From Octopus vulgaris (lineage: Eukaryota): a DNA stretch of 64,000 nt. The translations under genes and the position numbers were made by a program. Below, piece by piece: positions 17,692 to 55,910 of this stretch (the stretch's first letter is position 1; each line of letters opens with the position of its first letter). The notes below the pieces were generated by a model. That model made no database searches. It was not told the origin of the DNA and worked only from the letters and a program-made list of their open reading frames with translations. The stretch lies in NCBI GenBank assembly GCA_951406725.2, contig OX597826.1, positions 29,326,001 to 29,390,000 on the forward strand, given 5' to 3'.

Positions 17692-18010
17692 GCGGACACA
17701 TTTCTCTCCTATAACATCGCTATTTTCTCTGACACACTGTCTGGCAATCCGAAATACTTCAGCTCTTTGATCCTCGCGACGCTGGACATTGGCAAACTTC
17801 TTCTTTTCTGCTACATCTTTGGCAATGTATACCTGCCGCCCAGCCTCCCTTTTGGCTATCTGGTACAGTTCCCTCGGACACAGACAATGTGTTGTTAGCC
17901 AGCTGGAAGAGATGTTTTTCTGGGGCTATAAACAACAGTAGCATCGTCTTCTATGGGTCCGCCACATTTAGATGTCAAATTTACCTCATGATATATTTGT
18001 GTGTGTATAT

Positions 18011-20328: not shown

Positions 20329-21368
20329 ATATATATATATATATATATATATATATTGCATTTCTAAATCTCTTAGAGAGATTTATACAGTAGCATCATG
20401 ATAAGGTGATGTTATGTTGCCAACTTAATGTGGCAGTCCCATGAAAAGGAGGAATGCTACTGCTATTTAGCCCTAGGAAACACCGTTTCTAGTTGGCCAG
20501 GGCATATTTTCTGTGTCATTCATATATATATGTATATATATATAAAATAATGTACGTATTATAATGTAACAAACGAAGAAAAAGATTCCTTCAATGGGGT
20601 TTAAAACATCCAATTAACTGGTACGTCAGTTAAATACAACAGAAATAGGAGTATAAATACAAATTAGAAACAAATTAGATAGAGGAATAGAATTGACAAT
20701 CTAACAATTTATTTTATATTATATTATGATATAAATAAATTGTTATATATGTGTGTGTGGCTCATCATCACCAATGCCATCTCAATTATTTGCTTTGGTT
20801 CTCAAAAGAGTAGAATAAATACCAGCCTTTAAAATATGTACTGATGTATGCATCCATTTGTGTGTCTCCTTGTCTTCACATTGTGACAGTTGTAAACCAG
20901 TGTCACCATCATATAAGTGGTGCGATTTTATTTCCAGTCTTCCATGAAAAACATGTCTGGCTATAGGGAAACGGGACTTGCTTGGAAATGAGGGTTGGTG
21001 ACAGGAAGGGCATGCAGTCATAGAAAATGTGCATTCAGTGAAGTTTGTCTGACCTGTGCAACCATGCATAAGTAGACATTACAATGATACTGATAATATA
21101 CATACATATACACACACACACATATGCAGGTATGTATATTGTTATAAAATGAGGAATATCCAAAGATGAATATTTCTTCCAAGTGCCAGTGAAGAATGCA
21201 AGGAACCAATACTAGATATACCCCACCACTGTATACCACACTTCACCATTCCACAGCAGAGAATGGTAATTCCTGCAACAGGAGACACAATGTAAACAAC
21301 GCAGTAACAATCGGACGGTCGTGGGTTTTTTTGTTTTTTTTCACTTTGGCTGCAACTGTTGTTTAACA

Positions 21369-53624: not shown

Positions 53625-55910
53625 TATATATATGATGGATGTGGGTTCAAGTCCCATGGCTGGTTGTTGAGTAATTTTTCCACTTTGTAAGTGTAATTTA
53701 CCCAGTATTTTTGCTGTTCTAATGGCAAATTTGCGTTCAAAAAAATATCTAATTTGTATCCTTCAATATGTGTGTGTGTGTATGTGTATATATATATATA
53801 TGATGTGTGTGATATAATGTTATAACCTGTATTTTCAGTATTTCCGACCAGTTAGTTGGTGCCGTGGAATTCAACAAGACCGGAGATTGGATTGCTATGG
53901 GCTGTTGTGGTCTCGGTCAGTTACTGGTATGGGAATGGCAGAGTGAGACCTACATTTTAAAACAGCAGGGTCATTTCAACAATATGACCTGTCTGCAATA
54001 TTCTCCTGATGGTCAGTTTATTGCGACCGGTGGTGATGATGCGAAGGTCAGCATAAATTTTTCTTATCTTTTATATAAAATATTCTCTATATTCGTAAAG
54101 TTTATTTGCCAACAGAATGTAGCAGTCCTATAAAGGACGATGTTACTGTTGTTTTAGCCCCTGGAAAACATTATTCTTCATAGGATTGCCATATTCTGTT
54201 GGTATATATACATTACCTTCCAGTACTGTTCCTGTATGTCTCTCACTAAGAGATTTAAAACAAGTTGTTTTTCTCCATACGAGATCAGCAGTTATATGTC
54301 ACTTAAAAAATATGCAGTATTTGCAAGTAGAGAGAGCTTTCGTCCCTAGCTTGTGGTTGTCTCACACTGAGGATGGATAACATCCAGAAACCTAGGTCTG
54401 TGAGTATCACGTAAGGCCAGAGACGGAGTGATGATCTCCTTTGCAAATGCTATATAAACACAAACTGTGTGTCGATAGATACCTAGAGAAGATGTTTTCC
54501 ATATAAACATTGCCATCCATTACTGTCACTGTATATCTCTTGCTCAGAGATTTGAAACAAGTTGTTTTTCTCTATTCTTTACGTTTTTATTTATAATTCT
54601 TCAATAGCTTTTTTTCTTATATATTTCTTTATATAAAGGCACATGGCCTTATGCTTAGGGGATTGTGTTTCTGATTGTGATATGGTTTCAATTCAGGCAG
54701 TGAGGTGGCAGAACTGTGAGTATATTGGGCATGCTGCTTAGCGGCATTTTGTTCGTCTTTACGTTCTGAGTTCAAATTCCACCAAAGTGGCTTTGCCATT
54801 CATCCTTCCAGGGTCGATAAAATAAGTACCAGTTGATCACTGGGGTCGGTGTAATCGACCTATACCCCCCCTCCATAATGTGCCAAAATATGAAACCAAT
54901 ACCATGGTTTCAATTCTCATCATGGTCCAAGCCATCTCTTATTGGGAAATAAAACTTCCAAAGACTAGGTGCTTGTACAAGTCATTTGGCATGATTCTTA
55001 CTGATGGATGCTCTTACTAACACCAACCACTTCACAAGGTGTTAACCCTTTCAATACCAACTTGGCCGAAACCACCTCTGGCTCTGTAATACAAATGTCT
55101 TGTTTCCATAAGTTCTGAATTAAAATCTTCCACCAAACCTTAGTCATAATTTATGTTCCTAACACTAGCTGAATGATAACTAAGTTATTTTACTAAATTC
55201 TTTGTCATGTTTAAAATTAATTGAAAGAAATACAGAGCATCTCAACAGAAATATGGTAATAAAAAAGTTAAAGGTGCATTTTCTCATAGCACCAACAATA
55301 GACCAAACTTAAGTTAGTCACAAGCCCTAGAACTTGTGTGACCCAAGATTCACCCAGTTTCCATGACATACAAGTGGCTGAGATAACATTTCCCCAATAA
55401 ACAGGATGTCATCCTGTTGCAGGATTTATTTCCCAATGATTGCTGGAACTCTTTTACACCTGAATGCACTGCAGCAATACGAAACGAAGTGGTCTTGCTA
55501 AAAAACTCAATGCTTTGCCCAGTCTGAAAAATTGAAGCTGCAATTTTATAACCACGTGCACCAAGCCCTAACTACCAGACTGCTTGCCTTTAAACCCTAG
55601 AGAGGTTGAGTAATCCTTAATGGGGCAAAACTAGAAAGAGCTCATAATTCTATACAATATATAAGTATATTTGTCCTTTCCTTGAAGAGGTTTGTAGTAA
55701 CAATACATTTTGAAGCGATGCATTGTGGTGGTTCAACTCCACTTTGAGAGCGATTCTGATAGCCTCAGTTTGAAGAGGGCAGTTGTCCTTTTCAGAGGGT
55801 CAGTGTGGTACTCCACATCAGAGATCGTCACTATGGTTAAAAACCACCTTTGACATAACCATCAAAGTATCTGTTTCATGGTGTGTGTATCATTTTACAT
55901 GTTATGTGTT

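Follow-up and report, generated by a model that had tools for sequence, protein, structure and literature searches.

The window, a 64,000-nucleotide stretch of Octopus vulgaris DNA, carries on its plus strand a coding exon of a PWP2/UTP1-like WD40 gene (53839..54046), identified with phmmer. The best full-length match of this exon was human PWP2 (7mq8_LO residues 328-396, E 1.2e-36), and contigs from two runs presumed to be RNA show splicing on both sides of the exon. The intron that follows it contains an insertion (about 54095-54575) formed by an inverted, 5'-truncated arm and then a 1.3-unit direct arm of a repeat family whose monomer measures 353 bp (GC 0.43). The inverted arm (54095..54171, minus strand) covers family positions 290-353 and 1-13, is 95% identical to the family consensus, and stops at the short 3' hotspot of the family. 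The direct arm (54167-54575, plus strand) runs through positions 317-353, 1-298, a deletion, and 1-75; its first part (54167..54500, positions 317-353 then 1-298) is 87% identical to the consensus, and the two arms overlap by 5 bp. The initial annotation had placed the insertion at 54204..54572, missing the inverted arm and the first 37 bp of the direct arm (54167-54203). TATTC is present at both insertion edges, where it is ambiguous and could possibly be a target-site duplication. Very high-copy repeats, with contig depth far above single copy, adjoin the insertion at window positions 54718-54864 and 55060-55270; we take these to be probably SINE-type.

Within the direct arm the start of the unit occurs twice on the plus strand, as repeat 1 (54204..54278, family positions 1-75 of the first pass) and repeat 2 (54501..54575, the start of a second pass round the unit, 91% identical to the consensus). 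The repeats are ungapped, lie 297 bp apart, and are 84% identical over 75 nt, with 12 differences, 11 of them within the first 72; the original description of 72-bp ungapped repeats with 11 mismatches enclosing a hammerhead was therefore correct. The two repeats carry 7 and 5 private changes and share 2 non-consensus bases, which bears out the suggestion that they were identical at insertion and decayed afterwards. The 297-bp unit deduced from their spacing did not hold. Consensus positions 299-353 are missing at the junction 54500..54501 (plus strand), which creates the 297-bp spacing; these positions are present in 82 other segments, and the inverted arm contains the very 55 bp that are absent here from the direct arm. 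The junction 22-mer has a single occurrence in the 2.8-Gb genome at ≤1 mismatch, and the deletion is not an assembly error, because a DNA contig of organism B crosses the junction without gaps. The 55-bp deletion is private to the locus; the spacing is therefore an accident of the locus, and there is no 297-nt unit. A 297/298-nt subfamily was considered and rejected, given the single occurrence of the junction and the deletions of another copy (L085), which differ and are shorter.

Between the repeats lies a minimal type I hammerhead (54361..54404, plus strand), recognized from sequence, in the sense orientation and about 320 nt downstream of the 5' splice site. It consists, on the same strand, of stem I (54361-54366 with 54399-54404), CUGAGGA (54367-54373), stem II (54374-54378 with 54382-54386), GAAA (54387-54390), a helix III made of the 6-nt palindrome CCUAGG (54391-54396), and UC (54397-54398), with predicted cleavage after 54398. 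Predicted pairing was 0.52-0.97 for stem I, 0.64-0.84 for stem II, and 0.03 for helix III as a monomer. A loose motif search gave 3 matches in the window vs 0.57 expected, and the hammerhead had no Rfam match at gathering or E-value thresholds alike; Rfam models miss minimal variants, and the absent match is no evidence against a ribozyme. The case for the ribozyme accordingly rests on the family evidence. The ribozyme had been described as undamaged, which is nearly right: it differs from the family consensus at 1 of 45 nt, a CpG C-to-T change (C to U before stem II) that is common to 11 of 70 other hammerhead-spanning copies and happens to lengthen stem II.

The locus holds this single hammerhead, with one cleavage site, and not two or more consecutive complete-ribozyme units; no second core was found on the plus strand within 49-60 kb of the window. 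Helix III of the hammerhead is predicted to need a partner, and since the hammerhead is single and has no partner nearby, the copy should be almost inactive and, by prediction, incapable of releasing a circle. The 297-nt circle joined at the cleavage site that had been envisaged should not form at a locus with one such site. In the available portion of PMC4209133, single minimal hammerheads showed no in vitro cleavage. The surrounding structure has also decayed: the window's 297 nt folds at z -1.8, the family consensus at z -7.3, and 9 of the 67 pairs predicted outside the ribozyme are disrupted in the window copy (rank 64 of 82), whose long hairpin is more broken than that of the median copy.

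A genome search with the repeat yielded at least 77 matches (40 scored of 1010 candidates), other loci being about 80% identical. Loci from left-flank-only and right-flank-only queries were added and 24 duplicates of 90 dropped, giving 66 loci and 109 segments. Copies span 0.2-2.1 units, are about 10% decayed from the consensus, and wrap head to tail; 37 of the 109 segments exceed 353 nt (the longest, 753 nt), and 6 cross the cleavage site twice. The exact core pattern, which covers the 13-nt stem II variant only, matched 45 genome places, none of them one unit apart. It was matched by 3 of 36 flank-selected copies, which gives about 540 ribozyme-bearing copies, with wide error. The genome thus holds roughly several hundred such copies, and the proposed copy-number check came out as a dispersed repeat; 400 kb of evenly chosen genome contained 1 fragment of the family. 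The sole reading frame within the insertion is a 56-aa antisense ATG frame. In stem II of one subfamily (L008, L013, L030, L043, L065, and L084) the A-U pair is replaced by G-C and the loop has 4 nt in place of 3; this subfamily falls outside the exact core pattern count of 45. Elsewhere in the window, truncated fragments of the family or its relatives occur at 17875-17968 (plus strand, 85% to consensus) and 20362-20497 (minus strand, 75%), neither with a ribozyme.

Comparison with a sister family (L145:5580-5808; loci L226-L265) informed on past function. This family is 71% identical, has a unit of about 359 bp and the palindrome CUCGAG, gave 2427 first-look candidates, and is younger (about 93-97% to its own consensus); its 33-nt ribozyme occurs in 61 exact copies, no two of which are spaced by a unit length on one strand. 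Between the families, pairs of stem I, stem II, and the palindrome change on both sides; such two-sided changes affect 6 of 14 pairs. Across 22 selected copies of the two families 89.6% of cells were paired, vs 3-48% for slid controls, in rows that were chosen for an intact core and that amount largely to a single event separating the two families. The consensus units of the two are predicted to fold with far greater stability than their shuffles (z about -7), and both families have an unpaired C before stem II and an A after it. The extra A between stem II and GAAA is conserved, with C/A in 48 of 70 and T/A in 11 of 70 copies, and is found in the sister family as well. All elements of the minimal consensus of Penelope-like elements (PLEs), given as CUGANGA-H-G...C-GAAA-palindrome-UH in the accessible part of the PMC4209133 supplement, are present in the family hammerhead; the unpaired C before stem II belongs to that published consensus, and the extra A does not. 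Because the stems covary between the two families, the ribozyme was, judging from these sequences, likely functional in the source elements.

Present-day constraint is a separate matter. Constraint or domestication had been proposed on the grounds that a fully intact ribozyme would have a probability of about 0.04 under decay. In 36 copies selected by their flanks only, the 12 core bases differed at 34 of 423 positions (8.0%) vs 8.8% and 8.5% for the non-CpG flanks (p 0.79). Over the full 45 nt these copies differed at 11.5%, more than the flanks, because of the subfamily and CpG sites in stem II. In 34 copies from whole-unit queries the core differed at 5.6% vs about 9% for the flanks (p 0.018 at all sites, 0.07 at non-CpG sites), a lower divergence that is expected because the query contains the core. 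Base-matched rates were alike for core, paired, and unpaired sites. All 12 core bases were kept in 32 of 70 copies, and the core together with all 13 pairs in 4 of 70. Across the family copies, the catalytic core decays as fast as its flanks.

The window copy itself stands out, with 1 change in 45 nt vs 50 in 412 elsewhere (binomial 0.021, Fisher 0.045) and, without the subfamily sites, the strongest ribozyme-versus-flank contrast of the 70 copies (0/40 vs 30/250, p 0.006). Among the 36 flank-selected copies, not one shows ≤1 change in the 45 nt. These observations, together with the sense orientation in a spliced gene and the sharing of the insertion by organisms B, C, and D, favor a reading in which the insertion arose as a repeat copy and selection then maintained its ribozyme, for instance for cutting intron RNA and affecting PWP2 pre-mRNA splicing or decay. 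However, 4 of the 70 copies gave p values of ≤0.05 where 3.5 would be expected, and the probability that the lowest of 70 values reaches 0.006 is about 0.34. The flanks of the window copy have also decayed further than the median (rank 51 of 66), and the copy was chosen for looking intact; the estimate of 0.04 overlooked this choice and the hundreds of copies, and when the window copy's own changes were shuffled, some 45-nt stretch with ≤1 change appeared in 40% of trials. The poor pairing of helix III, the missing second core, the reported inactivity of single minimal hammerheads, and the broken hairpin also speak against retention by selection. The strong contrast of the window copy can be explained by selection among many copies, and we consider kept function very unlikely. 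Slightly less probable still is its specific form, a retrozyme hammerhead domesticated in an intron of octopod PWP2, an essential gene of ribosome biogenesis, that would cut pre-mRNA with the help of a protein or of a second RNA pairing with the palindrome. The ribozyme of the window copy is likely no longer under selection.

In the two runs, which were guessed to be RNA, intronic contigs had a depth of 4-5 vs 63-178 for exon contigs, and the contigs are possibly DNA. One of them (X11, 54272-54494) passed unbroken through the cleavage site, although assembled contigs cannot show ends and this one may be DNA. No circular joint was present among the assembled contigs of these two presumed-RNA, possibly DNA, runs. 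Organisms B, C, and D showed 0-4% differences over the pieces of the insertion seen, too few for comparing the ribozyme with its flanks. In organism E, one contig left the exon, matched the inverted arm for 23 nt, and showed no match beyond that point, the ortholog and paralogs being indistinguishable.

The ends of the copies point to the mode of insertion. Among the 109 segments, 3' ends cluster at positions 11-20 (39 segments, 26 of them exactly at 16) and 71-80 (19 segments), about 60 nt apart, and 5' starts are scattered. Head-to-head arms, in which an inverted 5'-truncated copy lies beside a direct copy, occur at 30 of 66 loci, the window locus included. The 30 arm pairs comprise 13 that combine a short and a tail end, as at the window locus, 1 with two short ends, none with two tail ends, and 16 with at least one end elsewhere. 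A microsatellite follows 32 of 78 hotspot ends vs 7 of 31 other ends, which indicates weak targeting; none follows at the window locus. In the sister family, two 3' ends lie about 41 nt apart. As described in the available text of PMC8557442, PLE insertions include partial tandems, a 5'-truncated copy in inverted orientation, and a one-ended tail. For an Anolis PLE, the accessible part of PMC11167929 reports that reverse transcription starts at two internal sites, which define the tail, that both strands are cut at AT-rich DNA, and that uncut RNA is used in vitro. The octopus ends fit these descriptions closely, with a tail of about 60 nt. The retrozyme or Penelope layout assumed at the outset was right in kind, this being a retrozyme-type repeat likely mobilised by Penelope enzymes, but the repeats are a head-to-tail wrap and not LTRs.

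The same ends bear on the reading that the 75-bp repeat arose by a later local duplication unrelated to retrotransposition. Its junction is indeed unique to the locus. Repeat 2, however, terminates at the long ('tail') 3' hotspot, at position 75, where 19 of 109 segments end at 71-77, and thereby completes the commonest arm pairing, short and tail; the divergence of the repeats is also as large as the age of the family predicts. A local duplication is accordingly extremely improbable.

The nature of the template is constrained by the ribozyme site. The cleavage site is crossed by 75 of 109 segments, a figure inflated by how group A was found, and no segment starts within positions 191-200. Since segments read through the cleavage site and none start there, we conclude that a cut, linear monomer did not serve as the template. 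We lean toward a circle as the template, with an uncut multimer a strong contender. Folding of the consensus showed no preference (circular -124 vs linear -122 to -131 kcal/mol) and so does not speak for a circle.

The genome contains candidates for a mobilising partner. Young elements with reverse transcriptase (RT) and GIY-YIG domains are present, with 781-aa frames at many loci. We examined 50 GIY-YIG loci (30 of the 148 matches, and 20 of these places again with 8-kb extensions), and the unit served as terminal repeat at none of them, their terminal repeats being others; the sole hit, at L145, proved to be an independent insertion of the sister family, 1.3 kb beyond the open reading frame. 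A tblastn search over 165 family loci returned unconnected fragments only and no joined PLE frame, and no RT and GIY-YIG open reading frame was found between pseudo-LTRs (pLTRs), the arrangement of an autonomous Penelope-like element. Two of the elements met in this survey are worth recording. A very young Penelope-like element (L136:430-5672, G000:C16:20834500-20842500) has terminal repeats of 456 bp that are 99% identical, an upstream frame of 359 aa with no Pfam match, and the 781-aa RT and GIY-YIG frame seen at many loci; its pLTR has no similarity to the 353-bp unit and, by eye, seems to carry a hammerhead with a U3-A8 core variant. A Penelope-like copy at L145:1821-4983 has inverted arms of 766 bp that are 100% identical, and its RT and GIY-YIG frame is 574 aa long.

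These searches bear on whether the unit is the orphaned pLTR of an extinct autonomous Penelope element and not a stand-alone retrozyme. The tail and inversion marks are of the same kind as those of such elements, the ribozyme fits the PLE minimal consensus of the available PMC4209133 text bar one extra A, and retrozymes have been proposed to derive from pLTRs in the accessible part of a recent preprint (bioRxiv 10.64898/2026.07.22.740005). Yet the long copies re-enter the unit, up to 753 nt, no copy extends into an RT or endonuclease frame among the 165 family loci, and the upstream flanks have only inverted arms and microsatellites in common. We regard an orphaned pLTR as quite unlikely. Origin from a pLTR fits our preferred explanation; mobilisation as part of a full element does not.

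That explanation, in which we have considerable confidence, sees the locus as what decay has left of a two-armed insertion. The inserted sequence belongs to a dispersed, non-coding family of 353-bp hammerhead repeats, an animal non-LTR retrozyme; Penelope machinery likely copied it into the intron, and its ribozyme is likely unselected. Source loci would have made multi-unit RNA, which hammerhead pairs may have cut through the palindromic helix III. A Penelope-like reverse transcriptase/endonuclease would then have begun reverse transcription at internal positions about 16 and 76, acting on both nicked strands and running through the ribozyme site.

The window hammerhead also invites comparison with those in the introns of amniotes. 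Amniote intronic hammerheads are few-copy and deeply conserved, and they are single, intronic, and on the sense strand. The window hammerhead is likewise single, intronic, and sense, but it lies in a repeat family of hundreds with no tested excess conservation. Conserved intronic hammerheads of amniotes are named in the available portion of PMC7229834.

The closer relatives are the metazoan non-LTR retrozymes, among them the 350-390-bp Mytilus repeats (Cervera and de la Pena 2020, PMC7229834, in the part accessible). Like these, and especially those of Mytilus, the octopus family has a non-coding unit of ~350 bp, GC 0.43, in keeping with the short (about 150-400 bp), low-GC units of this class, with one type I hammerhead per unit, wraps head to tail, has a stable predicted fold, and is dispersed, a likeness known here from sequence and predicted fold. 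Unlike those described in that portion, its copies span 0.2-2.1 units in two arms with about 10% decay, no long intact-ribozyme array was found here, and C and A flank stem II. With PLEs whose pLTRs carry minimal hammerheads (PMC4209133, PMC8557442, and PMC11167929, available portions) it shares the minimal hammerhead with palindromic helix III, the partial tandem, the two fixed 3' ends (tail), and the inverted 5'-truncated arm; unlike them, the family has no ORF, and its tail is about 60 nt vs 30-40 in PLEs. Li, Clavereau, and Pollet (bioRxiv 10.64898/2026.07.22.740005) present retrozymes of vertebrates and four invertebrates as non-autonomous PLE derivatives, arguing from pLTR homology in the portion of the preprint available. 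The octopus copies resemble theirs in being monomeric dispersed relics, many intronic, that co-occur with EN+ PLEs, whereas the Penelope link here rests on insertion ends. By the two-ribozyme criterion given in that portion, the window locus is not an active retrozyme. The repeat family is a new family of animal non-LTR retrozymes, and the locus is a decayed copy and not an active member. Our literature searches turned up no publication on retrozymes of cephalopods, although the supplement of PMC7229834, outside these searches, may list some.

As a dead repeat copy, the locus itself matters little. The family provides a mollusc example of retrozyme insertion ends with the tail and inversion marks of Penelope. 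These ends support the proposed partnership between retrozymes and Penelope elements, with a template that was read through the ribozyme site.
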